A DNA stretch of 64,000 nt, taken from Thiotrichaceae bacterium UBA7357 (GTDB lineage: Bacteria > Pseudomonadota > Gammaproteobacteria > Eutrophobiales > Eutrophobiaceae). The notes under the pieces were generated by a model. It searched no databases, was not told the origin of the DNA, and saw only the letters and a program-made list of their open reading frames with translations. Positions 21,745-44,885 of the stretch are shown here, piece by piece. Where the stretch lies: the NCBI GenBank assembly GCA_002470825.1, contig DKOR01000014.1:7021-71020 (forward strand), read 5' to 3'. The number at the start of each line of letters is the position of its first letter. Position 1 is the stretch's first letter. The position numbers and the translations under genes were made by a program.

Positions 21745-21751
21745 AATTTCA

Positions 21752-22402
21752 TCAGTTTGATTTTAAATCTGGACTAACAACGAACTCAGCTTGAGTTTTT
21801 TCCCTAATTTCATCCAAATCAACACCTGGAGCCAATTCAATCAAGGTAGGTTTATCTTCTTCAAATTGAAACACGGCTAAGTTTGTTATTAAAAGGTCCG
21901 TTACACTGGAGCCTGTCAAAGGAAGATCGCAAGACTTAAGAAACTTAGGACTACCGTCTTTTGCCGTGTGGTCCATAATAACAACGACTTTATTTACACC
22001 CGCGACTAAATCCATTGCGCCACCCATGCCTTTAATCATCTTGCCAGGTATCATCCAGTTTGCTAAATCTCCATTTTGAGCAACCTGCATGGCGCCTAAA
22101 ATTGCTAAATTAATATGCCCACCACGAATCATGGCAAAACTATCTGCACTGGAAAAATAACTAGTTTGGTCTAACTCGGAAATAGTTTGCTTACCCGCAT
22201 TGATTAAATCAGGATCAACTTGATCTGGGTAAGGAAATGGTCCCATACCAAGCATACCATTTTCACTTTCTAATATGACTTGTACATTGTCGGGGATATA
22301 GTTTGCGACTAAAGTTGGTATTCCAATACCCAGATTAACATAAAACCCATCTTGCAACTCTTCCGCAGCACGTTGCGCTATTTCTTCTCTAGACCATGGC
22401 AT
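21752..22402 (-). CDS. 3-oxoacid CoA-transferase subunit B
   Basis: 216 aa beta subunit of the family I CoA-transferase (ScoB/AtoA). It is paired with the subunit A gene 15 nt upstream. Confidence 0.9.
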   Translation of the reverse strand: MPWSREEIAQRAAEELQDGFYVNLGIGIPTLVANYIPDNVQVILESENGMLGMGPFPYPDQVDPDLINAGKQTISELDQTSYFSSADSFAMIRGGHINLAILGAMQVAQNGDLANWMIPGKMIKGMGGAMDLVAGVNKVVVIMDHTAKDGSPKFLKSCDLPLTGSSVTDLLITNLAVFQFEEDKPTLIELAPGVDLDEIREKTQAEFVVSPDLKSN

Positions 22403-22417
22403 AATTATAATCCTCTA

Positions 22418-23122
22418 CTAAGCTACGTATTCACGTGTAGTCATTATTTCGATAGGTTTTTTATGGTCAGTACCAACGATAAAGCCATTCACATAAATAC
22501 CTGGCGTATGGATATGATCAGGATCAAAATCTCCCAAGCTCACATATTCTTCAACCTCGGCAATCGTTGTTTTTCCAGCCGTTGCCATCACAGGATTGAA
22601 GTTTCTAGCTGTTTTTCGGTAAACTAAATTACCTTCATCATCCGCTTTCCATGCCTTGACAAGAGATAAATCGGCCACCAAACCAGTCTCTAATATATAG
22701 GTCTCACCATTAAATTCTTTATGCTCTTTACCTTCAGCAATAACCGTTCCAACACCTGTTTTAGTATAAAAACCAGCAATACCTGCACCACCTGCTCGAC
22801 AACGCTCAGCTAAAGTTCCTTGAGGATTAAATTCTAGTTCTAACTCACCCTTCATATATTGTTGTTCAAATGTTTTATTTCCACCAACATAAGATGAAAC
22901 CATTTTTTTTATTTGTCGTGTATGCAGTAAAATCCCCAAACCAAAGTCATCTATTCCGCAATTATTTGAAATCACGGAAATATCTTTCACGCCTGAATCA
23001 CGTAATGCAGTAATCAAATACTCTGGGATACCACAGAGACCAAAGCCACCTGCCATAATGGTCATACCATCAAACAGAATTCCTTCCAAAGCCTCTGACG
23101 CGCTATTTTTTAATTTATTCAT
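22418..23122 (-). CDS. 3-oxoacid CoA-transferase subunit A
   Basis: 234 aa alpha subunit of the family I CoA-transferase (ScoA/AtoD) (GGFGLCGIPE motif). Confidence 0.9.
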   Translation of the reverse strand: MNKLKNSASEALEGILFDGMTIMAGGFGLCGIPEYLITALRDSGVKDISVISNNCGIDDFGLGILLHTRQIKKMVSSYVGGNKTFEQQYMKGELELEFNPQGTLAERCRAGGAGIAGFYTKTGVGTVIAEGKEHKEFNGETYILETGLVADLSLVKAWKADDEGNLVYRKTARNFNPVMATAGKTTIAEVEEYVSLGDFDPDHIHTPGIYVNGFIVGTDHKKPIEIMTTREYVA

Positions 23123-23419: not shown

Positions 23420-23457
23420 AACTTCTCATCCATGAGCAATGTCATGGATGAGAAGTT
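23420..23457 (-). terminator. 16-bp perfect inverted repeat (AACTTCTCATCCATGA-gcaatg-TCATGGATGAGAAGTT) downstream of the RND gene; probable terminator or insulating hairpin
   Basis: Perfect 16-bp stem with a 6-nt loop, 38-75 nt downstream of the RND stop. It is flanked by a T6 run on one side and an A5 run on the other. The U-tract on the minus strand is imperfect (UUUGAAAAAA). Confidence 0.4.
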
Positions 23458-23494: not shown

Positions 23495-25930
23495 TTATGC
23501 GGGTGTACTATCCGTTAATGCTGAGTCGGCCGCATCAGTAGTTTGATCTCGTTCTTCATTAAAAATGAATTTTGGTTTAAATATATATGCCATAGCAGGC
23601 ATCAAGAACAATGCTGACAGAGCAGATACAGTTAGCCACATACCGATTAACATACCCATTTCAGCCTGAAAGCGTAAGGATGAAAACAGCCACACACCAA
23701 CACTAACAATTAACACTAGAGCGGTAACCAATACACCACGACCAGCGCAATGTAATGATATTCCTATTGCCTCTAGATGCGTTTTTCCTGAATCATACTC
23801 ACCTTTTATACGATCACATATATACAGCGTGTAATCTACCCCCAAACCAATACCCAGAGCAGCAACCGGGACAGTATTAATATTCATACCAATGTTTTGC
23901 CAAGACATAAAGGCAAAGGTGACGAGATTCGCTAGGACTACCGGCACCATAAAAAACAAACCAGCAATACTTGAGCGGTAGACAAACATACACATCATCA
24001 CAAGGATAAATAACGCAAGCGCGATAGACTGTATCTGACCAGACAATATAACTTCATTCACAGAAGCGATCACACCGATGATTCCACCCGCCAATCTAAA
24101 ATTTGCAAGCTCCTGTAACTCAGGATTATCTTTTATGAATTGCTTAACACGCGCAATTGCCGTTGCAATCGTGTCACCTTTTCTATCAGAGAAATACATC
24201 AGTACAGAAGCATAGTTAATATCAACGTCAGTGAAGCGTAATAAATCACCAGGTTCAGCTGCACGTTCAAACATAAACAATAATTCACCATTCTGATCGG
24301 TAGTTGTACCTAATTCAGAGTACCTAAAATTACCTTCACGTAATGTTTGATTCACAGATGGAAGCACATCTGCTACAGATATAGTGGCGCCAATTTCTTT
24401 TTGCTGCTCCATATATTGTTGAAAACGCAACATACCATCAAGGATTTCAACATTTTTTATCTTCCCGACGACCTTGCCACCAAACTCATTTTTGGCTCCT
24501 TCCTCGACACCACCAACCACGACAAACATACGGTCAGCACCAGGGAATTGCTTATTGATGCTTGCAGAATCTACATTATAACGACCATCTGGCCATAGGA
24601 TTGGAGAACCTGGATTTGAATCACCAACATCTAAATCTTGCGCTAAATACCCACTACCAATAAACACTATCGTTGCTAGAAAAACGACAACATACCTTGC
24701 TTTTGTTGCAACCACTCTGACACAAATATCTAGGAAGGGTCTGATGACTAATAAGTCTAAGTTAAGTGGATGTGCATAAGATTTCGGATTTTTAACCCAT
24801 GATAATAAAACTGGTGTCACGACAAGTGAACTAATCGCAACTGTACCAACCCAGACAACCGCCAGAACAACTAATTTTTGCAGTAATGGAATTGGACTAA
24901 TCGCGACTACTGTCACACAACCTGCATCTGTTGCTATACCCAACAAACCAGGGCGCAACAAATCTTTCATTGTTGTTGTTGCAGCTGATAAAGAATTAAC
25001 GTCTTTATTATCATCTACTTTGTCGATCTCTTCATGATATCGCGTCATCATCTGTACAGAATGAGATACCGCTCTAGCAGTTATCAACATAGCAACAACA
25101 ACAACAAGCGGATCAAAGTGAATACCACAGAGTTGCGCCACACCTAACGCCCATATAGCACTAATAGCACCAGACAACAGCGGTAAAATAGTCCCACGCC
25201 AAGTTCTGTTTATAACAAACAGTAATACAAGAAATATTGATGCAGCTATACTAATAAGTTTCATTGTTTCTGGCAGGTAATGGTCTACCCAGCCATATAA
25301 AATCGGATTACCTACCAAACTTATATCGACAGTCTCATCATCAAGTTGTTTGACCAAATCGTAAGCTTGTTCATACGCCAGGTTGAAATCAAGTAAATTA
25401 TCAAAAAAATCAACCGTAATAAGTGTTGCTGTTAAATCTTTCGATACGAAAGGGCCGTAGACCAAGGGACTACGAAGTATAGCTTCTTTCATGTAGTCAA
25501 TATCTGCTTGAGTTTCAGGCAATTCTGGCCACATATACGGAAAACTTTCAATACCAACTGTAGAAGCTCGAGTCTCTTTGAGTTTCTTACCGGCTATAGA
25601 AAAAATTTGAAATTCATTGATGGCATCAATTGAATACAATCCTTTAGTGAGATCCCGTATTTTCTTCAATACAGGCATTTGAAAGATATCACCTTCGGTA
25701 GATTGAACCATGAAGGTCATAATATTAGTACCACCAAAAGTGTCTTTAAACTGCTCATGAACTTTAATGTATTCATGCGAACCAGGCTGTAAATCTTCAA
25801 ATACTGTTTTAACATCTATTTTATAGGCAAAGTTTGCCAATATAGCTGTCAAAAAAACAACCAGTCCAAGAACTACTTTTCGATGTCTCATGCAAAATAG
25901 TGCCAAATTCTCTAACATTTCTTTCTCCAA
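23495..25930 (-). CDS. RND-superfamily exporter (MMPL/HpnN-like; 12 TM with two large periplasmic loops)
   Basis: 811 aa with two blocks of about 6 TM helices, each preceded by a large soluble loop. The typical N-terminus MLENLALFCMRHRKVVLGLVVFL is present. Confidence 0.85.
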   Translation of the reverse strand: MEKEMLENLALFCMRHRKVVLGLVVFLTAILANFAYKIDVKTVFEDLQPGSHEYIKVHEQFKDTFGGTNIMTFMVQSTEGDIFQMPVLKKIRDLTKGLYSIDAINEFQIFSIAGKKLKETRASTVGIESFPYMWPELPETQADIDYMKEAILRSPLVYGPFVSKDLTATLITVDFFDNLLDFNLAYEQAYDLVKQLDDETVDISLVGNPILYGWVDHYLPETMKLISIAASIFLVLLFVINRTWRGTILPLLSGAISAIWALGVAQLCGIHFDPLVVVVAMLITARAVSHSVQMMTRYHEEIDKVDDNKDVNSLSAATTTMKDLLRPGLLGIATDAGCVTVVAISPIPLLQKLVVLAVVWVGTVAISSLVVTPVLLSWVKNPKSYAHPLNLDLLVIRPFLDICVRVVATKARYVVVFLATIVFIGSGYLAQDLDVGDSNPGSPILWPDGRYNVDSASINKQFPGADRMFVVVGGVEEGAKNEFGGKVVGKIKNVEILDGMLRFQQYMEQQKEIGATISVADVLPSVNQTLREGNFRYSELGTTTDQNGELLFMFERAAEPGDLLRFTDVDINYASVLMYFSDRKGDTIATAIARVKQFIKDNPELQELANFRLAGGIIGVIASVNEVILSGQIQSIALALFILVMMCMFVYRSSIAGLFFMVPVVLANLVTFAFMSWQNIGMNINTVPVAALGIGLGVDYTLYICDRIKGEYDSGKTHLEAIGISLHCAGRGVLVTALVLIVSVGVWLFSSLRFQAEMGMLIGMWLTVSALSALFLMPAMAYIFKPKFIFNEERDQTTDAADSALTDSTPA

Positions 25931-25992
25931 CGAGCCGAAATAAAAATCTTCGACTACCCCTAATTATTTATTATTATTTGAATTTAATAGAT

Positions 25993-27066
25993 TTAATCAG
26001 CAAACAATGTCCATGCATTTGACTTAATTTCCATTGCGCCTACTGTTTGACCAACTGACAAAAAGCTACCACCATCAATAGCCAATTCTGTGTGTGAAGT
26101 TAAATCTGTGTCTGACAAATTTCTTGAATCAAACTGAGTCATATCTGCTGAAAATTTTATCCACTTACCTTTATTACCCACAGCGACCCACTCGTTTGTT
26201 TCATCAGACCAATCTACATCCATTAAATGTTCCGTCATACCAGAAACTTTAGGGTCAATATAAGTCCAAGTTTCACCACCATCACTTGTAGCGACGATTG
26301 AACCGCCCAGTCCTACAACGACACCTTCCTGAGGTGAACGAAACGCAACAGCAGTAAAACTGTTAGGACTGTTTGTTTGAGTATCTTTCCACGTCTGACC
26401 ATTGTCAGCACTCTTAAATATGAGACCAAATTCACCAGCTATAAAAAGTGTAGTGTCGTTAACTCGAACTATGTCGTTCATGAAGACATCTTCTTCTTCA
26501 CGCATTTGTTTCCACGTTTCACCATAATCAAGCGATTGAAGAATCATACCCATCTCACCTACCGCCCAACCCTCACCATCGGGGTAGGAATGAACACGCA
26601 GTAGCTTATTCGCAGTTTCTGACTTTGGTGACTCAACTTCAATCCAGTTTTTACCACCATCACTAGTCCTGAGGGTCACACCATTATTTCCTACTGCCAC
26701 TGAATTATTTTCGTCCCAAGACGTGATATCTTGCAGATGTGATACTGTCGGAGCAGTTTGACTCTCCCAACTTTTACCCTTGTCCGTTGATATTATAATT
26801 TTTCCATAATTACCAACAGCCATGTAAACATCAGAATTCACTTTGCTCAAACCAAAAATATTGTCTCGGACATTTATCACCGGCGGGATAACTTCTTCTA
26901 TTACTGCTGTAGGTTTAATGAAAATACCAGCCCACAGTAATGTACCTACAATCGCCCAAGGCATTATAGATACAATAAGTTTTGCTATTTTCTGCACAAT
27001 TGATTCAGCAGTATTAGATATTTCGGATGTTTTTTCTACTGCAGTATTATTTTCTGACATATTCAT
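25993..27066 (-). CDS. BNR/Asp-box repeat beta-propeller protein (Ycf48-like), N-terminal membrane anchor
   Basis: 357 aa with repeated S-x-D-G-G-x-T-W motifs (TDKGKSWE, SDGGKNW, LDYGETW, ADNGQTW, SDGGETW) and one N-terminal hydrophobic helix. Confidence 0.75.
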   Translation of the reverse strand: MNMSENNTAVEKTSEISNTAESIVQKIAKLIVSIMPWAIVGTLLWAGIFIKPTAVIEEVIPPVINVRDNIFGLSKVNSDVYMAVGNYGKIIISTDKGKSWESQTAPTVSHLQDITSWDENNSVAVGNNGVTLRTSDGGKNWIEVESPKSETANKLLRVHSYPDGEGWAVGEMGMILQSLDYGETWKQMREEEDVFMNDIVRVNDTTLFIAGEFGLIFKSADNGQTWKDTQTNSPNSFTAVAFRSPQEGVVVGLGGSIVATSDGGETWTYIDPKVSGMTEHLMDVDWSDETNEWVAVGNKGKWIKFSADMTQFDSRNLSDTDLTSHTELAIDGGSFLSVGQTVGAMEIKSNAWTLFAD

Positions 27067-27178
27067 AACGACCCTTCTTCATAATGTGTTTCTTAACCAT
27101 CAGAATCTAAAAAGACATTAGTAATCCTTTTAATGGTTAACGTGTCATTTGTTTTTGAATACACCCCTAAATAAAAAT

Positions 27179-27213
27179 GGTGACTGCTAGAAAAGAATTA
27201 TCCAGCAGTCACC
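27179..27213 (-). terminator. intrinsic-terminator-like hairpin between the DUF1329 and BNR genes
   Basis: 10-bp perfect stem GGTGACTGCT/AGCAGTCACC with a 15-nt loop. On the minus-strand transcript it is followed by AUUUUUAUUU (plus-strand AAATAAAAAT at 27169-27178). Confidence 0.4.
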
Positions 27214-27248
27214 TTTGTGGGGAGAACAATATTAAAACTAATTTATTC

Positions 27249-28526
27249 TTATTTTGCGATACTGATTAACTTTTTAAGAGTCACATCGTCCGCTTCAACA
27301 CCCGCTGGGTTAGCCTTCATGTTAGATGACCATGTTGTAGAGAACTCAGCCTTCCAATCGATGATGTGACCAACAACTGGCATAGTGGATAAGTATCCAT
27401 CATCACCAACGTCACGACGGTTTTGGAAAATAAATGATTTCCAAAATTTGCCGTTTTGATCAAGTGCTTCTCCGTAGTAAGGGCGCGGATAATCAACTTC
27501 CATCCAAACAGTTTTCTTACTGTATGGATGTTCGACTGGTGGAACACCCTCGATTACAAATACTTCACGTGGCTCCCACTGCACTTGTGGCGCAGGGAAA
27601 AAGTGTGGAGGAATGTCCATGCCTACAGCGGGGAACTCTTTAATGGTGTTTTTGTACGTTAAGTCAACAGTCATAAGCGGTGCATGCGCAATTGCGAATA
27701 TCCATTGTCGACCTAGCAACTTAGTAGACTGATATTTGGTAGGAACCGCATCCCAAATATCCCAATCATCATACAATTGCACGGTACCACCAATTGGATC
27801 CATCCAAGAACTACCCGTCAAACGACGAGCACGACGAACAGACTTTAAATAAGCCCAAGTGTCATCTGGTGTTTTTGAAGTAGGATCGTTATAACGGATC
27901 TGGAAAATACCTAAACCTTTAATATCCTGAGGATAGGTAGCAACCAAAACAGTTTTTTGCATGATACTGCCATCGCCTTCAGAAATAGGACCGCCATCTA
28001 GACGTCCTTCCATATAGTAACGCTGAGCCCACCAACGTTGGATACGTTCCATACCCTTCGTGGCGTCCAAGAATACCCATGAAATGTGACGAAGATCCAT
28101 AGTGGCACCATATGTAGGTCCACGCAAATTCCAGATCAACTTGTCTCCTGCATGCGGATCATCCATCTTCACATCTTGTGGATCAAAGAACATCCCTGCT
28201 GTCCAACCAGTTGCAGTTCGGTCAGTTGGATTAAATTTTACAGTTTCCTTGCTCTTCTGAGTCCATGACATGTACTTTTCATCCATTGGCACAGGCTCTG
28301 AATGACGAACAGGTATTGCTAAATGATGATTACGAATCATCCACTCATACTTGCCTGGCAACATGTCACCTACACGCTTACCTTCAAATGTCATATCGAT
28401 AACACTATCCAGGTTTGCGGCATTAATGATTGTGCCTTCTGGCATTTCTTCAGCAATAGAGCTCAGGGGAGCGCCAACGAGCAACCCCAAAGATACTACT
28501 GATGTAGCTAATATTTTCATATACAT
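27249..28526 (-). CDS. DUF1329-family periplasmic protein (LolA-like fold suspected), signal peptide
   Basis: 425 aa with an N-terminal signal peptide. Its size and composition match the DUF1329 proteins that accompany DUF1302; the family call is from memory. Confidence 0.6.
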   Translation of the reverse strand: MYMKILATSVVSLGLLVGAPLSSIAEEMPEGTIINAANLDSVIDMTFEGKRVGDMLPGKYEWMIRNHHLAIPVRHSEPVPMDEKYMSWTQKSKETVKFNPTDRTATGWTAGMFFDPQDVKMDDPHAGDKLIWNLRGPTYGATMDLRHISWVFLDATKGMERIQRWWAQRYYMEGRLDGGPISEGDGSIMQKTVLVATYPQDIKGLGIFQIRYNDPTSKTPDDTWAYLKSVRRARRLTGSSWMDPIGGTVQLYDDWDIWDAVPTKYQSTKLLGRQWIFAIAHAPLMTVDLTYKNTIKEFPAVGMDIPPHFFPAPQVQWEPREVFVIEGVPPVEHPYSKKTVWMEVDYPRPYYGEALDQNGKFWKSFIFQNRRDVGDDGYLSTMPVVGHIIDWKAEFSTTWSSNMKANPAGVEADDVTLKKLISIAK

Positions 28527-28614
28527 ATATAAATACTCCTACCTTTTTTAAAATCGTCCTGCATCACTGCAGGGCATTATGGTTAAATCATTTTTCATAT
28601 TTTTACTACTTAGA

Positions 28615-30324
28615 TCAGAACTGCCTCGTAACCTTCAAGACAATTTGGTTATCATCGGCAAACCAATCAAATAGCGATGCGTTACCTTCACGAAAACCAA
28701 GAGGGTTCGAAGTGCCGGCGGCTAATGTACCACCTACACCCGATGTTTGATTGTTAAAGCCAGACCCGATATTGTCTGATGCTGTATTCTTTTTATCACC
28801 ATCATTCCACCAGAGATCAGCTTCTAACTTCACACGCCAATCGTCGCCAAAGACAAACTCAACTGCAGCGATACCAAAACCACCACCGTTGCTCAAGTCT
28901 GTACCAGCAACAAACATAGGATTAATTGTGTCACGCTTGAAATTTAGTAGGGTGAATACAGTCAAGTAGGCCGTATGTTCTCTCTTTTGTGCACCAAAAG
29001 AAGCAAACTCAACGATTTCATCGCTGTCGCTGTGATCGAGTATCCATGTGTCGAAAAGCTGAACACTAGAAAGTGATGGGCGGTTAGTCCCAATATATCT
29101 ACCCAACTTAAATTCCTTATCAATACGGAACATAGTGACTAATGTATCTTTCTCTATAATGCCGCCCCAACCAGGTAAATCTGATGCTAACTGACCAAAG
29201 TTAAAAGGTTTATTTGGAATGAACGCTACTTCGGCACTCAACGTTGAATCAATCGCTTGAGCATAACCGTTTGCACTCACACCAAAAACGTTAATGTGTG
29301 GATAAATCCAATCACCCAACACACCGTTTTCTGCAGCTTCACTAAAATGACTCTGCGTGCCATCAACTCCAAAGAGAGCCGTGGAAGCACTATTAGCTGG
29401 GTTCATCATCGGCGTTGGGTTAAAAGTTCTTAAGAACGCGACAGAGTAACCAATTGAACCAATTTCACTGTTCCAACGAAAACCGAATGTCGGATCATCT
29501 TGTGAACCGTCTGTGTGGTCTGCGTTATAGTCTGTGAACGCGGTGAAATCTACACCACGATACGGATGTGGAATCCAACGTCCACCCTCAATATTGTAGT
29601 TGCTGCCCACATCATCATCACGATCAAGTCCTGGTCGGATGAAGAAGTTTAATGAACCACCAAGTTCGTCATAGAGATCGAGATCAAAATTGACTAAAAA
29701 TAGTGGTTTACGCCAATCTTCGTTGTTCTCAAAAAAGAGTCTCCAACGATAATCAAAACCATGCACCAAATCCATTGCTTGGAAGAAATCACTTTCTCCC
29801 CAAACCAATTGCTGCTTACCTACACGCATATTCAACTTACCGTCAAATAACGAAAAGTCAGCGTAATATTCGCGAAAGAATTCTTGTAAATGGTTTGTAT
29901 TGTATTGATCCATGTAGTTGTTAGAACTACCAGCTTCACCAGCAGTACTTGTACCCGCTGTGATTCTTTGGAGGCTATCCATGTAATCCGTCTTGTACTC
30001 TCTATCAAAGCGACTGACGATTTTCCATGAAACTGGGCCTGTATAGATGTCTGTGTCTATTAATAGAGTAGCCCGAGCCATTGTAAGGTCAAATTTGTCA
30101 TCTTCTGGCGTTTCTTCATGGTCTTCAAGACCCATGCCGAAATATGTACGAGCGTAACCACTGATTTGCCAGCTCCATTCTTCACCATAGCCGCCTGTAC
30201 ACGTATCACAAGAAGGCTCACTTGCTAGATGACCGTCGGCGAATGCAGAACTTGTCGCAAATGTTCCTCCGAAACACAATAGAAAACCCATGGTTTTCAA
30301 AATATTGCTGTTATATTTTTTCAT
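28615..30324 (-). CDS. DUF1302-family outer-membrane protein (beta-barrel-like, C-terminal Phe)
   Basis: 569 aa with a signal peptide, a Gly/aromatic-rich beta-strand pattern and a terminal …VTRQF typical of OMPs. It is paired with DUF1329 as in the conserved DUF1302/DUF1329 gene pairs. Confidence 0.6.
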   Translation of the reverse strand: MKKYNSNILKTMGFLLCFGGTFATSSAFADGHLASEPSCDTCTGGYGEEWSWQISGYARTYFGMGLEDHEETPEDDKFDLTMARATLLIDTDIYTGPVSWKIVSRFDREYKTDYMDSLQRITAGTSTAGEAGSSNNYMDQYNTNHLQEFFREYYADFSLFDGKLNMRVGKQQLVWGESDFFQAMDLVHGFDYRWRLFFENNEDWRKPLFLVNFDLDLYDELGGSLNFFIRPGLDRDDDVGSNYNIEGGRWIPHPYRGVDFTAFTDYNADHTDGSQDDPTFGFRWNSEIGSIGYSVAFLRTFNPTPMMNPANSASTALFGVDGTQSHFSEAAENGVLGDWIYPHINVFGVSANGYAQAIDSTLSAEVAFIPNKPFNFGQLASDLPGWGGIIEKDTLVTMFRIDKEFKLGRYIGTNRPSLSSVQLFDTWILDHSDSDEIVEFASFGAQKREHTAYLTVFTLLNFKRDTINPMFVAGTDLSNGGGFGIAAVEFVFGDDWRVKLEADLWWNDGDKKNTASDNIGSGFNNQTSGVGGTLAAGTSNPLGFREGNASLFDWFADDNQIVLKVTRQF

Positions 30325-30805
30325 TCCTCCCCCTTAAAGAGTTTTAAAAATTTAAATCATCAAAACTACATCACCATTATCAATAAGACGAAGATTAGTT
30401 TTTAGAAATATATCTAGCAAGGTAGCAACAAGTTCTATGCCAAAAGAAGATATCGCTTTTAAAATGAAGCTAAGCTACTGATAATCATATATTAAATTTT
30501 TTTAAACTCGGTTCTAAGCTTTAATTTATCGAGCTATATAGGAACGATTGTGTCCTATCATAGAACGGTTCCTTTAATTATTTGCTGTAAAATTTTATTA
30601 ATTTCAAAATAATTAAAGTTATCATTCAAAATTTCCATATATATTAACTGTTTACCTGAGTAAATAACCTGTTTTGTGTGAGTTAATGAATAATGGTAAT
30701 ATCTATGCAACAACACAAAGCAATAGTTAATACCTCAATGAAATTAACATCCTGTTGTATTCCTGATAATTTTTTTACATAAGAGAATGGTGAAACACTC
30801 ATTTC

Positions 30806-32809
30806 ATGAATAAGATAAGAAAAGAAACAGATCTGAATACGCATTCATATTCTCAAAGGGATATCAATCAAGCATGGGATACTTTCAACTCATCGGGAGG
30901 AAAATCAAAAAATCTGACTGTGCGTGAGTTCATAGCTAGCTCGTGGCAGCGTTGTCTCTCTCAAGGCGTTAACCCTAAACAAACAGCGGCACCACTTCTG
31001 GCTACCGAGGGTAATTTACATATCTTACTCCAGAATAATCACAGTCTTATGAGATGCGCACGGCCAGTAACAACTCAGGCTAGAGTGCTTTTGCGCGATC
31101 TTGAATCCATATTAATTCTAACTGACTATGATGGCGTTATTCTTGATGTTGTTGGAGATCCAGAATGTGTTGAAAACGCTGTTGGAATTGGAATGGTACC
31201 TGGTAGTGGTTGGAAAGAAACTGTCTCCGGTTCAAATGCAGTAGGCACCGCAATAGCGACCGGTCTGCCGACACAAGTTCATGGAGAAGAACACTTTATT
31301 AAAGGTTTTAAGCGTTGGACTTGTACCGCTGGAATCATTAGCGATCCATATGACAATCAATTAGTCGGCGTGATTGATATCTCTGGCCTGTCTGATTCAT
31401 TTGACAAATTTCATGTCCCTCTAGTTGTGTCATGGGCTAACCAAATTCAATTATCGCTTGCTAAAAATACATCTGATCAGTGGAATCTTATTAAAGAGAA
31501 CAGTCAATGTGATTTTAAAAATAGTCATCGAAATAATGGTAAGATATTATTCGATAAACAAGGAAGAGTGATTGACCATTCTCAAAACACTTGCTCGGTA
31601 CTCAAATCTCTTGATATAGAGTATGACCTTTCTCTTAAGACTCGTTTATCACTAGAACGGTTTGGCGGAGACGAAATCATCTACCCCCATGATGCAGGAC
31701 TATGGCTTCTAGATGACTGGATTGAACCTATTAAGGATAAGAATGAAATTATAGGTTTTAAAATAGAACTCCCTATAGGCAACCGCTCCTCAAAACGAAT
31801 AAATATACCTTTTAAGACTCCAGCAATTAACATTGAAGCAGAAGCTTTTGAAAAGATATCTGGACAAAGTGCATCAATTAAAGCCAGTATAGAAAAAGCC
31901 CGCAAAGCAGCTAATACGCCCCTGCCCGTATTGTTATTAGGTGATACCGGTGTAGGAAAAGAAATGTTCGCCCGAGCGATACATGAATCAAGTAAATTCT
32001 CTAACGGTCCATTCATTGACTTAAATTGCGGTGCCTTCACCAGAGATATTTTGAGTAGTGAATTGTTTGGTCATGTCGAAGGTGCCTTCACCGGCGCTAA
32101 AAGAGGCGGCATGATGGGTAAAATTGAAGCTGCTAACGGTGGAACATTATTCCTAGATGAGATTAGTGAGATGCCACTTGATCTCCAACCTGTTTTTCTT
32201 AGGGTACTGCAAGAAAGAAAAATTCATCGTGTTGGTGCTATCGCTCCTATTCCAGTCGACTTTAGACTTATTGCTGCAACAAATAGCTACCTTAAACGAG
32301 AAGTCTCTGAAGGTCGTTTTAGAAAAGATTTATATTTCCGTTTATCGACGGTTGCCATTGGGCTTGATCCCCTATCAGAACGAAAAGATGATATTGAAGA
32401 AATTGCGCAACTTGTTTTAAAAGAAACACGAACTTCTCAAAAAATTATACCTAAACGAATTAGTGCTTCTTTAATCACAGCACTAAAAAATAGAGAATGG
32501 CCTGGCAATATTAGAGAGCTAGTCAATGTGATTGAATGTATGTGTTACATGTCTGCAAATCAAAATCTAACCACTCTAGATTTACCTGCAGGATATAGAC
32601 CGGGTGAATCACTTATTAACGTAGCATCAACTGAGCAAGGTCAGGTCCAAAAGACAAAATCAAGTCTAGATATTGCTGAACAACAAACAATTGAGAATGC
32701 GATTATCGAATTTAGTGGAAACATCACACAAGCTGCAAAACACTTGGGTATAGCGAAGGGAACTTTATATCGTAAGATGAAAAAATATAATTTAAAAAAC
32801 CCACGTTAA
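30806..32809 (+). CDS. sigma-54-dependent transcriptional activator (N-terminal GAF-like sensor, AAA+ sigma-54 interaction domain, C-terminal Fis-type HTH), AcoR/AcxR-like
   Basis: 667 aa with Walker A (GDTGVGKEMFARAIHESS), the GAFTGA sigma-54 contact motif (ELFGHVEGAFTGAKRGG) and a C-terminal HTH (AAKHLGIAKGTLYRKMKKYNL). Confidence 0.9.
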   Translation: MNKIRKETDLNTHSYSQRDINQAWDTFNSSGGKSKNLTVREFIASSWQRCLSQGVNPKQTAAPLLATEGNLHILLQNNHSLMRCARPVTTQARVLLRDLESILILTDYDGVILDVVGDPECVENAVGIGMVPGSGWKETVSGSNAVGTAIATGLPTQVHGEEHFIKGFKRWTCTAGIISDPYDNQLVGVIDISGLSDSFDKFHVPLVVSWANQIQLSLAKNTSDQWNLIKENSQCDFKNSHRNNGKILFDKQGRVIDHSQNTCSVLKSLDIEYDLSLKTRLSLERFGGDEIIYPHDAGLWLLDDWIEPIKDKNEIIGFKIELPIGNRSSKRINIPFKTPAINIEAEAFEKISGQSASIKASIEKARKAANTPLPVLLLGDTGVGKEMFARAIHESSKFSNGPFIDLNCGAFTRDILSSELFGHVEGAFTGAKRGGMMGKIEAANGGTLFLDEISEMPLDLQPVFLRVLQERKIHRVGAIAPIPVDFRLIAATNSYLKREVSEGRFRKDLYFRLSTVAIGLDPLSERKDDIEEIAQLVLKETRTSQKIIPKRISASLITALKNREWPGNIRELVNVIECMCYMSANQNLTTLDLPAGYRPGESLINVASTEQGQVQKTKSSLDIAEQQTIENAIIEFSGNITQAAKHLGIAKGTLYRKMKKYNLKNPR

Positions 32810-32911: not shown

Positions 32912-33898
32912 TTAATCAATATCAACAAGCACCACTCCGTAAAAACCAGCTTGCTCGACCTTCTGATGTGCGGACGCAATATTTTCTAGACTCTCTCGAT
33001 GAGCAATTCGATGTTGTAACATTTTTCCATCTAGAAGATCGGTGATGTCTTCAATTGCATCATACTTTGCTATCTCAGGCATTGCATAGACTAAGACCAT
33101 GCGTATAGTTAAATCCTGAAATAACATTCTTCTAAAAGGTAATGTAGGTTCTGCCACTTGCATTGAGGCATAGGTTGCTATCGTTGCACTCGTAGCGGCG
33201 ACATCGAGTAATATAGGCAAATTACCACCAAACTCTCCATCGACAATACGTTCTACCCCATTACCTTCAGTTAACTCAGCTACGGTACTCAGTAAGTCTT
33301 CTCCTTGATGAGAACAAACAGCATCGGCACCTGCAGCATAACAATGCGCTTCTGCTGCAGGATTACCAGCAGTCGCTATGACTGTTGCACCGGCATATTT
33401 TGCCCATTGAATAGCATAATGACCGACTCTTCCCGCGCCACCCGTCACAAGAAGAGTTTGACCGTCGACTAATCCATCGGCAAAGACACAGCGATGCGCT
33501 GTCATTGCCGGTATACCCATGCAGGCACCCACCTCAAAATCAACACTGTCGGGTAGCCAAACTGCACGATTCGAATTGACTGTGACATATTCTGCAGCAG
33601 TACCAAAACGTCGACCATACTGAGCTTCATAGACCCATACTCGCTCACCAATTCTTGATGACGGAACACCACGTCCAACCTCTTCAATAATCCCAGCTCC
33701 ATCACTATGGGGAATAATAAACCCATCTTTTAGTAGATCAGGGAAAGCCCCGTTGCGTTTTTTTACATCTGAAGGATTTACCGCTGAACAATTCAGACGA
33801 ACGAGTACCTCTCCATGGATTGGCATAGGTTGGTCAAGCTCCATGATCTCCAACACTTTATCTGCTGGGCCCATGGTTTTGAATGCAGCTGCCTTCAT
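32912..33898 (-). CDS. MDR-superfamily NAD(P)H-dependent oxidoreductase (quinone oxidoreductase / alcohol dehydrogenase-like)
   Basis: 328 aa with a GroES-like N-terminal domain and a Rossmann domain (TGGAGRVGHYAIQWAK). It is the last gene of the ketone-carboxylase operon. Confidence 0.8.
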   Translation of the reverse strand: MKAAAFKTMGPADKVLEIMELDQPMPIHGEVLVRLNCSAVNPSDVKKRNGAFPDLLKDGFIIPHSDGAGIIEEVGRGVPSSRIGERVWVYEAQYGRRFGTAAEYVTVNSNRAVWLPDSVDFEVGACMGIPAMTAHRCVFADGLVDGQTLLVTGGAGRVGHYAIQWAKYAGATVIATAGNPAAEAHCYAAGADAVCSHQGEDLLSTVAELTEGNGVERIVDGEFGGNLPILLDVAATSATIATYASMQVAEPTLPFRRMLFQDLTIRMVLVYAMPEIAKYDAIEDITDLLDGKMLQHRIAHRESLENIASAHQKVEQAGFYGVVLVDID

Positions 33899-33935
33899 TG
33901 AATATCTCTCATTAATTTTATAATCCCGTTAACTT

Positions 33936-35201
33936 TTACTGAATTCGACGCAAAACAGATACACAATTTGTGACACCTGAGCCGCCAATATTAACTGTCA
34001 TTGCGAGTTCCGGCTGTCCTTTTACTGCCACTCCAATGGGTGTGCCCGTTAACTGTTTATACATAAGTGCATGCATTGATGCACCTGTTGCACCAACGGG
34101 GTGTCCTTTAGATTTAAGTCCTCCTGAAAGGTTTATTGGACACTCACTATCAGCATCATATTTCCCTTCCATAAAATCATGTCCCGCACGACCTTGCTCT
34201 GATAAACCCATTGCTTCTACACATAGCATTTGATTAATAGTAAAACAATCATGAACTTCAGCCATGTCAATATCTGTCACCTGCACTCCAGCCTCAGCAC
34301 AAGCTTGTTGCACACCATGTTTCGCTGCTTGAAGTTCATGCAGTGTCTCTTTACGTTCACTCATCATCATTCGTTGCGTCACATGTCCTATCCCTGAAAG
34401 TTCAACAGCGTGTTTAAAGTTTGCTTTGGCATTATCAGTTGATGTGAGTACGACAGCTGCTGCGCCATCCGAAATTAATGAACAATCATGCAGTCGTAAC
34501 GGCGGAGCAATCAATGGATTACTACCTTTACCTGAATCAGGTAAATCAAGAATTGCTTTTGCAGAGAGCAGTTGCTTTTTATCGGGTAAACTACCCGGCC
34601 CAAAGTGGGCCAAAGGATTTTGAATACCATTACGATAATTTTGCGCAGCGACATGGGCAAACATAGTACGCAGTTTTTCATCACTCAGACCATGCTTTGT
34701 TTGATATGCCTTAGCAAGTTCTCCAAACAATCCTGGAAAAGTAACGCCGATAGAACCTTCATCAGGCCAATATGAACTACACGCCAACGCATGCGTTACA
34801 CCTTTCGTATCAAGCAGACTCATCTTCTCCACACCAAGAGCGAGTACATTTTTAAATCGTCCACTAGCAACAGCATAGGCTGCGTTATAAATAGCTATCG
34901 AAGATGTTGCACAAGCCCCTTCTGTTCTTGTTGTTGGCTTATAAAGTAAACCCTTAGGGTCTATTTCTAGAGCCAGTGGGCCAACATGTTCCTGGTTGAC
35001 AAACAATGAAGGTGAACATGAGCCCAACCAAATAGCATCAATATCCTTTGCTTCTAGACCGGCATCGGCAATCGCACCGGCACCCGCTTCTACTATCAGT
35101 TCATAGAATGATTTTAAATCTTCTACTTTACCCGTCTCTCTATCACGCTTAACAAATGCACCAAACTGAGTGTTGTGTGCACCAACTATACTAATCTCCA
35201 T
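33936..35201 (-). CDS. thiolase-family protein (SCP-x / lipid-transfer-protein type 3-ketoacyl-CoA thiolase)
   Basis: 421 aa thiolase-fold sequence with an N-terminal catalytic Cys region (EGACATSSIAI) and the C-terminal thiolase domain. Confidence 0.75.
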   Translation of the reverse strand: MEISIVGAHNTQFGAFVKRDRETGKVEDLKSFYELIVEAGAGAIADAGLEAKDIDAIWLGSCSPSLFVNQEHVGPLALEIDPKGLLYKPTTRTEGACATSSIAIYNAAYAVASGRFKNVLALGVEKMSLLDTKGVTHALACSSYWPDEGSIGVTFPGLFGELAKAYQTKHGLSDEKLRTMFAHVAAQNYRNGIQNPLAHFGPGSLPDKKQLLSAKAILDLPDSGKGSNPLIAPPLRLHDCSLISDGAAAVVLTSTDNAKANFKHAVELSGIGHVTQRMMMSERKETLHELQAAKHGVQQACAEAGVQVTDIDMAEVHDCFTINQMLCVEAMGLSEQGRAGHDFMEGKYDADSECPINLSGGLKSKGHPVGATGASMHALMYKQLTGTPIGVAVKGQPELAMTVNIGGSGVTNCVSVLRRIQ

Positions 35202-35260
35202 TGAGCTACCCTCTCCACCTAGAACAGTGAATTAAAAATATGAAAAATAAAAATTTGAAT

Positions 35261-36826
35261 CTATATTTTACGACCAACTTTTTCCCAAAAATATTTACGG
35301 ACTTCTTTTTTTAATACTTTACCTACTGGGCTACGTGGTAGCTCATCCCAAATCAATATTTCTTTAGGTGACTTAACACTACCTAACTTCAGTTTACAAA
35401 GTGCAATAATTTCTTGTGTATCTAGTTTAACTTTTGGGTCTTTTAACTCAACTACAGCTGTGACTTGCTCACCCCATTTTTCATCCGGAATACCTATAAC
35501 ACAACAGTCTTTTATTGACGAGTGCCCCCAAATGAGTTGTTCAATCTCTCCTGGATAAACATTAAAACCACCCGATATAATCATGTCGCGTTTACGATCA
35601 ACTATCGTTAAATATCCTTCATTATCAAAGATGCCAACATCGCCCGTTTTCTGCCAACCATTTACACGTATTTCATTTGTTGCTTCTGAGTCATTAAAAT
35701 AACAACGCATTAATAAATCACCTTTAACAGCAATTTCACCCTCCTTCCCGAGAGGAAGAATTTTGTCATCATCATCCAAAATAACCACTTCAATTTGTGG
35801 TGCAATTTTACCACAGGACCGAATCTTGTAAAAATCATCCATTTCAACCGCATCCACGTGATCTTCAGCAGATAAAAAGGTACAAACCATTGGTGACTCT
35901 GCTTGCCCATAAGTTTGAACCATCACGGGACCGAAAACATCAATAGCCTCTTTAAGTTTTTCTACTGACATTGGTGCAGCGGCATACCAAAAGTAACGTA
36001 AACTTGTATAATCATAATTATTCACACCCTTGTGTGCTAACAACATATAAATCGCGGTCGGAGGCAAAAATAAGTGTGTAATTTTGTGTTTTTCGATGAT
36101 AGATAATATAACATCTGGAGTCATACCTTCCATCACTATGATGTTTGAACCTTGTAATATAAGCGCAAATGATGCTACCCCAGCTGCATGTGTAATTGGA
36201 GCGCTAACAAGATAAGAGGAAGCAATATCCGGTATAGGCATTAATTTATTCTGAATCGACACCATTGACTGCCACGTTAAATAACTCCACTCTGCTAATT
36301 TAGAATCACCCGTCGTTCCACCGGTCGGAAATAAGCTTATTAAATCAGGATCATTTCCCCTTATTAGTCTTTCTTCCGCTTGTTCAATGAATTCATTTTT
36401 AAAATTTTGGATGTCAATCCCTGCGATTTTCTTACCCGTAAATGATAAACAATTTTCATTGTTGTATTGAACAACAAGTTGATGATTAGCATCAAGAATA
36501 TCTAAGTCAACAAAAAGCAATCTTGCATTAGATTTTTTAAGCAATTTTAAATTTGCTTCAATGGTATTTCGAAGATTGAGTGGCAACCATATTGCACCTA
36601 TTTCAGAAATGGCAAAGATACAGCAATAAGTTGCAATAGAATTTGGTGCGTAGGTCGCAACAATATCTTGCTGTTTAACGCCCTTTTCTTTTAATTGCAT
36701 GGCAACATGCTGTGCAATATTAAACATTTCTCGATAACTTAGTGAGAAGTCGTTATTGATATCAATAAATTGCGCATCACCTTTACTAAAAGCCGGACTA
36801 TTTTCGAGAAAATCGATAATACGCAT
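35261..36826 (-). CDS. acyl-CoA synthetase (AMP-forming, class I adenylate-forming enzyme)
   Basis: 521 aa with the AMP-binding motif (FPTGGTTGDSKLAEWSY), a Gly-rich linker and the C-terminal conserved Lys region. Confidence 0.85.
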   Translation of the reverse strand: MRIIDFLENSPAFSKGDAQFIDINNDFSLSYREMFNIAQHVAMQLKEKGVKQQDIVATYAPNSIATYCCIFAISEIGAIWLPLNLRNTIEANLKLLKKSNARLLFVDLDILDANHQLVVQYNNENCLSFTGKKIAGIDIQNFKNEFIEQAEERLIRGNDPDLISLFPTGGTTGDSKLAEWSYLTWQSMVSIQNKLMPIPDIASSYLVSAPITHAAGVASFALILQGSNIIVMEGMTPDVILSIIEKHKITHLFLPPTAIYMLLAHKGVNNYDYTSLRYFWYAAAPMSVEKLKEAIDVFGPVMVQTYGQAESPMVCTFLSAEDHVDAVEMDDFYKIRSCGKIAPQIEVVILDDDDKILPLGKEGEIAVKGDLLMRCYFNDSEATNEIRVNGWQKTGDVGIFDNEGYLTIVDRKRDMIISGGFNVYPGEIEQLIWGHSSIKDCCVIGIPDEKWGEQVTAVVELKDPKVKLDTQEIIALCKLKLGSVKSPKEILIWDELPRSPVGKVLKKEVRKYFWEKVGRKI

Positions 36827-36856
36827 TTTGACTCTCGAAAAAGGTTGCTTTAGGTA

Positions 36857-37714
36857 CTAGGCTCTTAAGTTTGAAAGTGTATCAAGAACTAACTCAGGTG
36901 TTGTTTCTTCTGGAATCGTTAGATAATTAAAGCCATTCCCTACTGGGGGAACAGTACTCATCGATTTCCACAATGCTTTAGAAATGTCTTTGCCACATGA
37001 ACTATCAGACACTGAACAAGTAGACGGTACAATAGAAAAATTAACATCCTCCGGAACATTAAAACTAGTATCTGAAAATGGCAAATGTATACCAACTGAC
37101 CAACGATAATGTTTTGCAACATTATAAATAGGTTGATACCAAGATAACTCTTTTGCACTTTCGGGCATTGATTCCGGAACTTCTCGCAATAAAATACCTG
37201 AGAGATTTACTTCACTAAAGTATCTTAGATAGTCAGCAACATACATTGATGCCGTATCGATGTGTGCCTCTTCCGGCGCTACATCAACAGTATTAGCTGC
37301 TTTATTAGCCTTGATGAGCAAAGAACGTGGTGAGGGCATCACTAATACGATGGGCACTGAATCACCGTAATTATTACTTATTGCCGTCAATACTTCTGCT
37401 AGTAATTCACGTGGTCCATATGCTTCTAACATTGCTTTAGCAGCAACTGTAATACGTTTCTTACCTGCCATCGATGGAATCGCTTCTTCATCTTCTAACA
37501 TCCAATGATGAAAAAGATCCCATATATCTATGACGACTACATCTGCGTTTACTAAGCCATGCGCTTGTCCATAAAAAGACATATAAGATGCCGGGTTTGC
37601 CCATGGATTCTCTCCCTCAGCCAATAACAATTTCTTGGTATAGGCGTTGAAATCAATCCAGAGTTTTGGAGTTCCCTCTCCAGCAGATAAATAGTTAACT
37701 AAATCTATCGCCAT
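36857..37714 (-). CDS. hypothetical protein tightly coupled to the carboxylase HyuB-like subunit (candidate accessory/epsilon-like subunit)
   Basis: 285 aa with no recognisable motifs. Its start codon lies 2 nt from the stop of the upstream HyuB-like gene. Confidence 0.5.
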   Translation of the reverse strand: MAIDLVNYLSAGEGTPKLWIDFNAYTKKLLLAEGENPWANPASYMSFYGQAHGLVNADVVVIDIWDLFHHWMLEDEEAIPSMAGKKRITVAAKAMLEAYGPRELLAEVLTAISNNYGDSVPIVLVMPSPRSLLIKANKAANTVDVAPEEAHIDTASMYVADYLRYFSEVNLSGILLREVPESMPESAKELSWYQPIYNVAKHYRWSVGIHLPFSDTSFNVPEDVNFSIVPSTCSVSDSSCGKDISKALWKSMSTVPPVGNGFNYLTIPEETTPELVLDTLSNLRA

Positions 37715-37716
37715 AC

Positions 37717-39996: not shown

Positions 39997-40010
39997 AATA
40001 TATTACCCCG

Positions 40011-42158: not shown

Positions 42159-42217
42159 AATCTACTTTCCTATAACTTTTTAGTAGTTTGATTTATTGTT
42201 TTAGTAAACTTTATTAA

Positions 42218-42625
42218 TTAGTGGCGATGTCTATGGCGCTCAACCTCACCTAAAACATCAGGCCCTTTCGTCGCCTCTGTGATCTCTTCTCGGTGACTCC
42301 ACTGTTCTTTAAGTGCATCAACATCCACTTCCATATCATAGAGCGGTTCATGATTCGGCAAAGTGTTTTCAACTTCAATCTGCGTACCACAACTTGGGCA
42401 ATAATATTCAAGAATATTGACCCAGTCTTTATCAGGACAAAATGTAAACTTATATTTTTCGGGGTCGATAACGTGTGGATGAATATCTGCTGGGTCGCGG
42501 TTATAAACCAGCAACCCTTCTTTGTAATTTCCACGTGCCGAATTGATTACATGATCACAAACACGACATTCCCAATTCTCTGTATCTAAATCGATACGAA
42601 GATATTCAGTCATTAATACTTTCAT
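42218..42625 (-). CDS. small zinc-finger subunit, acetone carboxylase gamma-like
   Basis: 135 aa with two Cys pairs (CRVCDH … YYCPSCGTQIEVENTLP) aligning with the remembered AcxC C-terminal motif (EYFCPECGTLHDVEAPTP). Confidence 0.75.
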   Translation of the reverse strand: MKVLMTEYLRIDLDTENWECRVCDHVINSARGNYKEGLLVYNRDPADIHPHVIDPEKYKFTFCPDKDWVNILEYYCPSCGTQIEVENTLPNHEPLYDMEVDVDALKEQWSHREEITEATKGPDVLGEVERHRHRH

Positions 42626-44562: not shown

Positions 44563-44885
44563 AATAGTTTTCCTTGGTTTTGCATTGTTGAATTTATGTT
44601 AAATCTTAAAATACTGTTTTTATTTCGTTTTTCTTTGATTTTGGTCCTGCACTTTTTGTTTCTTTTATAGTTTTTACTTTTAATAAACAACACCATATCC
44701 CATACATAGACTATGCCAAGATTTTAACTTCGTATAAATTAATCTGTATAATCCGTTTTAATTGAAATTTAGATATATAACTAAACTCATGTCACCAGCC
44801 GCAAGAGTTCCATTTTAGAGCACACAAGAGTAATTCGTTTCAAATTTGAACAGCGTCTTTTTATTTTAGAAATACAAATCAAGCC

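Follow-up and report, generated by a model that had tools for sequence, protein, structure and literature searches.

An AmeABCD-type envelope cassette linked to ketone-activating enzymes and divergent from a sigma-54 activator gene

What would a four-gene cell-envelope cassette carry when it lies beside an operon for ketone carboxylation, and how is it controlled there? The question is raised by a 64,000-nt stretch of contig DKOR01000014.1 (positions 7,021 to 71,020, forward strand; assembly GCA_002470825.1) from Thiotrichaceae bacterium UBA7357, which is called the window below. A DUF1302 outer membrane (OM) protein, a DUF1329 periplasmic protein, a BNR propeller and an RND protein are encoded there in a row (23495-30324), divergently from a sigma-54 activator gene. 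The cassette is widespread in Proteobacteria, where islands for the catabolism of monoterpenes, aromatics, steroids and fatty esters repeatedly include it. We use the names ameA to ameD and class the four genes as an AmeABCD-type cassette by their component families and gene order, not by sequence match to the Ame proteins. The function of such modules had been called essentially undefined in a first-pass annotation of the window, made from the sequence alone. This went too far, because the cassette is known as AmeABCD with a deletion phenotype (PMC6394551) and from sets of genes with correlated fitness (cofit). The family is already known. What is new here is the control region with conserved sigma-54-type promoters of ameA and of the carboxylase operon, a positionally conserved hairpin between two gene pairs, and the linkage of this subfamily to ketone enzymes.

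Composition and organisation of the cassette

The cassette and its two stem-loops comprised the following features.

28615..30324, minus strand: ameA-like gene; predicted DUF1302 OM beta-barrel, 569 aa, signal peptide cleaved after A29 (AFA/DG), C-terminal Phe
27249..28526, minus strand: ameB-like gene; predicted DUF1329/LolA-like soluble periplasmic protein, 425 aa, signal peptide cleaved after A25 (SIA/EE)
25993..27066, minus strand: ameC-like gene; Ycf48-like BNR beta-propeller, 357 aa, single N-terminal transmembrane (TM) anchor (about residues 26-50)
23495..25930, minus strand: ameD-like gene; MMPL/HAE3-type RND protein, 811 aa, 12 predicted TM helices, Asp699-Tyr700 in TM10
27169..27213, minus strand: intercistronic stem-loop between ameB and ameC; stem of 13-16 bp depending on the fold, then a T-run
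23420..23457, minus strand: stem-loop 38 nt past the ameD stop; 16-bp core, -29.4 kcal/mol, z -7.2

The first-pass annotation had described a co-directional set with short gaps, had assigned DUF1302, DUF1329, BNR and MMPL domains to an OM barrel, a periplasmic protein, an anchored propeller and a 12-TM RND protein, and had placed a hairpin between the two gene pairs. All of this was borne out. The four open reading frames lay at the coordinates it gave, all on the minus strand in the order A-B-C-D with intergenic gaps of 88, 182 and 62 nt; Pfam profile searches returned the four domains above their curated cut-offs, signal peptides and hydropathy agreed with the predicted locations, and folding recovered the hairpin (z = -5.0). 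We hold the composition and localisation of the four components with high confidence.

AmeA matched DUF1302 (PF06980) with an E value of 2e-15 and 57 bits against a cut-off of 23, and PF06980 was found in every one of 401 homologues. The AlphaFold2 model of AmeA, used for fold class only, had a low pLDDT of 51 (15-sequence alignment) and consisted nearly entirely of beta-hairpins. Every PDB match of this model in Foldseek was a 16-18-stranded OM barrel, and the top query-normalised TM-score was 0.38, for AlgE. DUF1302 has been described as an 18-stranded AlgE/Occ-like barrel without a solved structure (PMC13499233). AmeB matched DUF1329 (PF07044; E 1.5e-42, 147 bits) and LolA_like (PF17131; E 5e-11), and the sequence search of the PDB returned the LolA-like proteins 3bk5 and 9tp6. 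A lipobox Cys was absent from the AmeB N-terminal sequence. No NCBIfam model matched AmeA or AmeB, and the Pfam and NCBIfam searches showed neither a hydrolase domain nor a catalytic motif in these two proteins.

AmeC matched PSII_BNR/Ycf48 (PF14870; E 3e-22, 80 bits) together with BNR and Sortilin repeats, and its PDB match was the Ycf48-like 2xbg (E 1e-21). AmeD matched MMPL (E 5e-25), with only 21 bits to ACR_tran; its best NCBIfam model was HAE3 TIGR00921 at 161 bits, under the cut-off of 352 bits. Hydropathy gave a 1+5 / 1+5 layout of TM helices with two periplasmic loops of about 175 aa each, and the PDB matches, to MmpL3 and HpnN, were weak. The AmeD sequence GVDYTLY aligned with the Asp-Tyr motifs of MmpL3 TM4 and TM10, and D699 and Y700 were unchanged in all 80 homologues covering both positions, gamma/alpha and beta alike. 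Proton coupling of AmeD is likely, because its TM10 Asp-Tyr aligns with the MmpL3 proton-relay pair and is invariant in these homologues. In TM4 of AmeD (residues 286 and 290; window about 25061-25075, minus strand), Arg286/His290 was present in all gamma/alpha homologues and Gln/Asn in all beta homologues; the difference may reflect a different proton-relay network in the Apc-linked and Acx-linked subgroups described below. The listed start of ameD was a TTG at 25930 (minus strand) with no obvious ribosome-binding site, and an in-frame ATG followed four codons on, at 25918. The latter may be the true start, because AmeD of the relatives has 808-809 aa.

Domain searches found no membrane-fusion protein (HlyD/MFP) and no TolC-family outer membrane efflux protein domain in the four proteins or their neighbours. 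The Rfam scan gave no match in the cassette; its only match in the window was a single tRNA gene at 62413-62485 (minus strand).

The ameB-ameC stem-loop (27213-27169) read GGUGACUGCUGG...CUAGCAGUCACC followed by AUUUUUAUUU. It folded at -26.7 kcal/mol, and none of 200 shuffled sequences was equally stable. The consensus terminator scan missed this hairpin, whose loop exceeds 8 nt, and it was recovered by folding. Most of 38 distinct B-C spacers examined in the gamma/alpha group held a strong hairpin 10-55 nt past the ameB stop, often with a GCTGCTAG..CTAGCAGC core and often with a T-run after it. The stem-loop is a candidate terminator, attenuator or mRNA stabiliser, and it should make the outer pair more abundant than the inner pair. 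The stem-loop after ameD is the predicted end of the transcription unit. The cassette is organised as two pairs, an OM pair of barrel and carrier and an inner membrane pair of propeller and pump, as indicated by the inter-pair hairpin, the C-D-A-B order in betaproteobacteria and the unlinked pairs in Pseudomonas.

The ameB-ameC spacer (27067-27248, minus strand) also contained a conserved inverted repeat, AACAATA-N13-TATTGTT, immediately before the hairpin, and two conserved blocks past it, GAATGACACGTTAACCAT and GGATT-ACTAAT. The conserved blocks of this spacer may be an internal promoter or a 5' untranslated element of ameCD.

Linkage to ketone-activating systems across genomes

The genomes were scanned with the AmeA alignment, one genome per species, which gave 80 loci whose neighbours were annotated by tblastn with the window proteins. 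Linkage was counted at species level in the 49 loci whose flanks reached about 10 kb on both sides, taking a ketone system within 10 kb as linked. All four genes were kept in 49 of 49 loci. A ketone-activating system was linked in 42: an Apc-type carboxylase in 18, acetone carboxylase in 20, and a Baeyer-Villiger monooxygenase with an esterase in four. An activator with MimR_N/GAF domains was present in 40 of the 49. The cassette order was ABCD in all 25 gamma/alpha loci and CDAB in all 24 beta loci. The link to ketone catabolism drawn by the first-pass annotation from adjacency in a single genome was far stronger in this co-occurrence check.

Two operons of the window are relevant here.

32912..44562, minus strand: Apc-type ketone carboxylase operon; two Hydantoinase_A proteins, Acetone_carb_G, Hydantoinase_B, then downstream enzymes
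21752..23122, minus strand: 3-oxoacid CoA-transferase A/B (Pfam CoA_trans), downstream of the cassette

In 18 of the 25 gamma/alpha loci an Apc-type carboxylase-ligase-thiolase operon lay directly upstream, as in the window. The window operon encodes, in transcription order, an ApcA-like protein of 645 aa, an ApcB-like protein of 135 aa, an ApcC-like protein of 715 aa, an ApcD-like protein of 759 aa and a 285-aa conserved protein, followed by an acyl-CoA ligase, an SCP-x-type thiolase and a quinone oxidoreductase (QOR)-type dehydrogenase. The order of the carboxylase genes is that of acetophenone carboxylase (A, B, C, D), with the 285-aa protein in the epsilon position; this protein matched no model in Pfam or NCBIfam. 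The best NCBIfam models for ApcA/B/C/D scored 339/1250, 121/250, 580/1500 and 305/1500 bits, all far under the equivalog cut-offs, and the best PDB match of the 759-aa subunit was acetophenone carboxylase delta (5l9w, 275 bits). On these scores the neighbouring operon is assigned an Apc-type architecture and is not acetophenone carboxylase at equivalog level. With its dedicated ligase, SCP-x-type thiolase and two dehydrogenases of the enoate/quinone-reductase type, the pathway looks suited to a ketone bigger than acetone.

In the beta group (Aromatoleum, Azoarcus, Methyloversatilis and others), a three-subunit carboxylase was encoded directly upstream of ameC in 20 of 24 loci. The large subunit matched the crystal structure of Xanthobacter acetone carboxylase (PDB 5svb) with 1284 bits, indicating that the enzyme is a bona fide acetone carboxylase. 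The beta loci (L049-L080; about 1100-18800 in each) ran acxABC, then ameC-ameD-ameA-ameB, often 3-oxoacid CoA-transferase genes, then an AcxR-like activator. No carboxylase was found near the cassette in Pseudomaricurvus alkylphenolicus or in three Neptuniibacter genomes. At loci of this kind (L014 3655-7475; L021-L024, e.g., L022 3716-6428 and 16392-17294) the activator and the cassette were adjoined by genes for a Baeyer-Villiger monooxygenase, for an alpha/beta hydrolase and for an AraC regulator, a set that we take to be a ketone route of the MekAB/AcmAB type. One locus of this group (L024) was labelled as a Dokdonia metagenome-assembled genome (MAG); it is nearly identical to Neptuniibacter marinus and was probably mis-binned. 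In streamlined marine genomes (the complete 1.44-Mb genome of Porticoccus sp. Uisw_050_02, L036; L047 of 1.31 Mb; L032; L037), the Apc-type operon and the cassette ran together in the same direction, and no sigma-54 activator gene separated the carboxylase genes from the cassette; complete Porticoccus genomes of 1.3-1.4 Mb had this arrangement. No account of the cassette linked to acetone carboxylase clusters or to other ketone enzymes was found in the literature that was searched.

The CoA-transferase genes were linked to the cassette also in its closest relatives and in Thalassotalea, Pseudomaricurvus and Aromatoleum. In the window, the genes downstream of the cassette (18632-23122, minus strand) encode 3-oxoacid CoA-transferase A/B, a GFA protein, an NTF2-like protein, a glutathione S-transferase (GST) and an AtoE-type short-chain fatty-acid transporter. 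Further downstream (15769-18520, minus strand) were a GntR/FCD regulator, methylisocitrate lyase (prpB-like) and citrate/2-methylcitrate synthase. The CoA-transferase, the AtoE-type transporter and prpBC would suit short odd-chain ketones, broken down to acetoacetate or propionyl-CoA. Pfam domain searches found no lipid-biosynthesis genes near the cassette in the window.

Sigma-54-type promoters and the divergent activator

The activator gene lies between the cassette and the carboxylase operon, and the two spacers that flank these genes contained the following elements.

30806..32809, plus strand: divergent sigma-54 enhancer-binding protein; 667 aa, N-terminal sensor + GAF + AAA+ + HTH_8
30427..30442, minus strand: ameA sigma-54-type -24/-12 promoter, TGGCATAGAACTTGTT; GT instead of GC at -12
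30471..30483, minus strand: IHF-like site, TATCAGTAGCTTA, between the upstream block and the promoter; TATCA(G/A)-N4-TTA
30530..30572, minus strand: conserved upstream block, GGAACCGTTCTATGATAGGACACAATCGTTCCTATATAGCTCG, about 43 bp, about 100 nt upstream of -24; phylogenetic footprint
44703..44718, minus strand: sigma-54-type promoter of the carboxylase operon, TGGCATAGTCTATGTA; GT at -12 (44704-44705)

A divergent sigma-54 activator with a GAF domain was part of the first-pass description, and Pfam GAF, Sigma54_activat (213 bits) and HTH_8 matches upheld it. The protein carries GAFTGA at residue 426 and the Walker A sequence GDTGVGK at residue 379. Homologues with a precomputed PF26965 MimR_N match were 76-79% identical to it (L001-L004) or more distant (L005-L007). 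The activator gene stood beside the cassette in 20 of 25 gamma/alpha loci and in 20 of 24 beta loci.

A strict scan for GG-N10-GC picked up no sigma-54 promoter in the two intergenic regions. The elements listed above were found after the -12 position was loosened to G[C/T] and relatives were compared. The spacer between the activator gene and ameA was aligned for the window and seven relatives whose AmeA was 74-82% identical; conservation was confined to islands and the rest had diverged. One of these islands was the ameA promoter, TGGCAT-N5-TTGT at 30442-30427, in which the GG and the spacing fit sigma-54 and the -12 dinucleotide (30428-30429) is GT. The element TTGGCAT(A/G)(A/G)AACTTGT was kept in the window and all seven relatives, the whole clade having GT. 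Distant relatives had a canonical TGGCA(C/T)-N5-TTGC in the equivalent place (Thalassotalea, Pseudomaricurvus, 'Pontibacter sp. JAM-7' as deposited, and Emcibacter and Kordiimonadaceae MAGs).

Among the other islands were the ameA ribosome-binding site and the TATCA core of the putative integration host factor (IHF) site, which was invariant in the eight sequences; the latter was assigned by eye against WATCAANNNNTTR. The upstream block (30530-30572) contained two GAACG repeats, 21 nt apart and on the opposite strand, and is a candidate binding site for the activator.

Upstream of the carboxylase operon, TGG(C/T)A(C/T)-N6-TGC was present 115-160 nt before apcA in 13 of 16 related metagenome loci, and the window element stood at the homologous site. 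At -12 of this promoter the relatives had GC, and GT occurred in the window only. Because both operons have sigma-54-type promoters and the only nearby activator gene lies between them, control of ameA and the carboxylase operon by the divergent activator is a well-supported prediction from sequence. We think it probable that the cassette belongs to a ketone regulon.

Outside coding sequence, the best sigma-54-type match of the window was a canonical one, TGGCATAATGGTTGCT at 46800-46815 (plus strand), 80 nt before the ATG of the monomeric isocitrate dehydrogenase gene (46895-49099; Pfam IDH 1258 bits).

Cargo, direction and comparison with known systems

A route that traffics a hydrophobic substrate, as first proposed for these genes, is plausible, and transport linked to the substrate is fairly likely. 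The explanation that we favour as a whole, which we put forward tentatively, is an efflux shuttle of the AmeABCD type within a ketone regulon. AmeD would be a proton-motive-force-driven HAE3/MMPL-type RND protein of the inner membrane, with the Ycf48-like beta-propeller AmeC anchored at its side; AmeB would be a soluble, LolA-like carrier in the periplasm and AmeA a DUF1302 OM barrel of about 18 strands. When ketone is present, the MimR/AcxR-type GAF activator would turn on the ameA sigma-54 promoter together with the Apc-type carboxylase operon, and the hairpin after ameB would leave channel and carrier in excess over propeller and pump. AmeD and AmeC would extract a lipophilic ketone, or a closely related membrane-dissolved compound, from the inner membrane and load it onto AmeB, and the cargo would exit via AmeA. 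Efflux of this kind would hold the growth substrate at a tolerable level in the membrane during its turnover by the carboxylase, a role already suggested for AmeABCD. A shuttle in which a carrier moves between the membranes fits better than a rigid bridge of the AcrAB-TolC type, because of the predicted excess of a LolA-like carrier, the anchored propeller and the lack of a membrane-fusion or TolC-family protein. Regulation by the activator, the identity of the cargo, the hand-over to the carrier and the direction are steps that we infer, and the outward direction with a ketone as cargo is somewhat doubtful when taken by itself. To our knowledge, all characterised bacterial RND proteins (HpnN, MmpL3, AcrB) transport their cargo outward, and we know of no bacterial RND importer.

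Several observations weigh against this explanation. In both promoters of the window strain the -12 dinucleotide is GT and not the near-invariant GC, and an operator shared by the ameA and apcA promoters was not established: both upstream blocks have GAACG half-sites, but their spacings differ. The linkage counts overstate the number of independent associations, because the loci were selected by AmeA similarity and many share ancestry; their annotation was also based on tblastn. The substrate of the linked betaproteobacterial acetone carboxylase is small and water-miscible, a misfit with a purely hydrophobic cargo, and for a membrane-permeant compound such as acetone neither efflux nor uptake is obviously useful. 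Retention in Porticoccus without the activator fits nutrient acquisition better than solvent tolerance, because these genomes are streamlined to 1.3-1.4 Mb. P. putida requires its homologues to grow on Tween 20 and on butyl stearate (bioRxiv 10.1101/2020.07.04.188060; PMC10866462), and failure of the mutants to grow on butyl stearate points to acquisition, because this ester is non-toxic.

The last two points lead to the opposite direction of transport. AmeA would admit the ketone or a more hydrophobic methyl ketone, AmeB would carry it across the periplasm, and AmeC and AmeD would draw on the proton gradient to unload AmeB and insert the cargo into the inner membrane, a logic akin to that of eukaryotic NPC2/NPC1. 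Such inward scavenging is somewhat unlikely, slightly more so than the outward direction with a ketone as cargo, and the specific claim that this subfamily serves volatile or lipophilic ketones as a dedicated inward route energised by the proton motive force, from barrel to LolA-like carrier to propeller and RND protein, is rather unlikely. It would explain why the cassette stands right behind the carboxylase genes, with no regulator, in Porticoccus, where a tolerance pump would hardly be retained, and a role in substrate transport has been proposed for the P. putida homologues (PMC10866462). The surplus of carrier and channel that the hairpin would imply recalls binding-protein-dependent importers. 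Acetone would need no such transporter, however, and an importer of the RND family would be without precedent in bacteria. The data on Castellaniella defragrans bear on both directions. Its AmeABCD is induced on alpha-phellandrene; the deletion mutant grew poorly on hydrocarbon monoterpenes, was less tolerant of limonene and accumulated more Nile Red, and acetate rescued it at up to 5 mM limonene (PMC6394551). Poor growth on hydrocarbons as sole carbon source and the rescue by acetate favor inward transport, whereas the lower tolerance at high limonene and the higher Nile Red signal favor the outward shuttle.

The cassette might move no ketone at all. Exporting an endogenous lipid or another OM component, as HpnN, MmpL3 and BstABC do, would harden the envelope and would be co-induced with the catabolism of membrane-active compounds. 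This would explain the acetone link without transport of acetone, and the nearest characterised RND proteins are lipid exporters. The four families were cofit in Shewanella, Kangiella and Pseudomonas in randomly barcoded transposon sequencing (RB-TnSeq), with pleiotropic phenotypes (Shewanella, P. stutzeri among them) for which export of a cell-wall component was proposed, and DUF1302 and DUF1329 proteins are abundant in Delftia nanopods (bioRxiv 10.1101/072470). Paralogous cassettes lie beside clusters for monoterpenes, p-cresol, phenanthrene, steroids and detergents (PMC6394551; bioRxiv 10.1101/072470). Lipid export nevertheless leaves unexplained why the subfamily tracks three enzymatically unrelated ketone-activating systems and why it is retained in a catabolic operon of oligotrophs at nM ketone, and it finds no lipid-biosynthesis genes nearby in the window; we regard it as quite improbable. 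A neighbourhood due to chance, in which a housekeeping envelope system merely adjoins ketone genes and an activator, would account for the seven of 49 loci with no ketone enzyme within 10 kb and the nine with no activator. It is very improbable, given that the association is seen again with each of three enzyme systems, in both gene orders and across several bacterial classes, and that a conserved sigma-54 promoter of ameA stands next to the sole nearby activator gene. Least credible, to the point of being negligible, is that the DUF1302/DUF1329 pair is an OM esterase to which the RND/BNR pair is unrelated, a hypothesis drawn from P. putida fitness data on fatty esters (bioRxiv 10.1101/2020.07.04.188060). 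The folds are a beta-barrel and a LolA-like protein with no hydrolase signature in their sequences, the loci with a Baeyer-Villiger monooxygenase already have their own alpha/beta hydrolase, and the four genes stay together at every full-flank locus. The group that proposed the esterase has since turned to a transport model (PMC10866462).

Whichever direction holds, a subfamily that tracks ketone enzymes and has a sigma-54 control region gives the question of uptake, efflux or envelope remodelling a defined inducer class and a regulator. Porticoccus litoralis, Pseudomaricurvus alkylphenolicus, Neptuniibacter and Aromatoleum are cultivable candidate hosts. The link to acetone carboxylase is a puzzle in itself. 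If the inward route were true, the cassette would be an unrecognised part of marine turnover of ketones (acetone, butanone, methyl ketones), kept even in Porticoccus genomes of 1.3-1.4 Mb, and the first importing RND system in bacteria.

Among known systems, AmeABCD of C. defragrans 65Phen is the closest in kind: it has the same four components in the same order, and both cassettes lie inside a catabolic island for a lipophilic carbon source. The neighbourhood there is for monoterpenes, whereas here it consists of ketone carboxylation and a divergent sigma-54 activator, and AmeC of C. defragrans is predicted to be periplasmic while AmeC of the window has an N-terminal TM anchor. AmeABCD has been placed in a distinct HAE3 sublineage that always occurs with the same three partners (PMC6394551). 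The same four families, again cofit, are found in Sama_1588-1591 of Shewanella amazonensis, the Kangiella set, Psest_1122/1123 and 1923/1924 of P. stutzeri, and PP_0765/0766 and PP_2018/2019 of P. putida. The split into A-B and C-D in Pseudomonas parallels the hairpin-separated pairs of the window and the C-D-A-B permutation of betaproteobacteria. The Shewanella, Kangiella and Pseudomonas copies have pleiotropic or fatty-ester phenotypes and LuxR-type regulation, in contrast to the ketone enzymes and sigma-54 activator of the window subfamily. AlphaFold co-folding predicted complexes of DUF1302 with DUF1329 and of DUF1329 with BNR and RND proteins (PMC10866462; PMC13499233, ipTM 0.84).

Two other candidates were rejected as homologues: AupA/AupB of Marinobacter, in which AupA is FadL-like and whose description includes no DUF1302, DUF1329 or RND protein (PMC5989066), and PahS/PahP of Cycloclasticus, an unrelated system with a TonB-dependent receptor. 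FadL/TodX-type channels and AupA/AupB have likewise been proposed as OM and inner membrane partners for uptake of hydrophobic carbon, but their families are unrelated (PMC5989066).

The HAE3/HAE2 lipid exporters HpnN, MmpL3 and BstA share with AmeD the RND fold and small periplasmic loops, and the TM10 Asp-Tyr aligns with MmpL3. The similarity to HpnN and MmpL3 is weak (E 1e-7 to 1e-3) and limited to the TM bundle, with NCBIfam scores far under the cut-offs, and neither works with an OM barrel, a LolA-like carrier or a propeller of its own. HAE1 solvent pumps of the AcrAB-TolC and TtgGHI type are likewise RND-based, envelope-spanning and often encoded beside solvent catabolism. They employ a membrane-fusion protein and a TolC-family channel, however, in place of the LolA-like carrier, beta-propeller and AlgE/porin-like barrel found here. 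The regulator has its counterparts in AcxR (Xanthobacter/Rhodobacter), the activator of acetone carboxylase, and in the acetone-responsive mycobacterial MimR. Both are ketone-responsive and resemble the window protein as sigma-54 AAA+ activators with a MimR_N/GAF sensor and HTH_8, encoded beside ketone-activating enzymes, although the window activator is only 36-39% identical to the betaproteobacterial activators beside acxABC.

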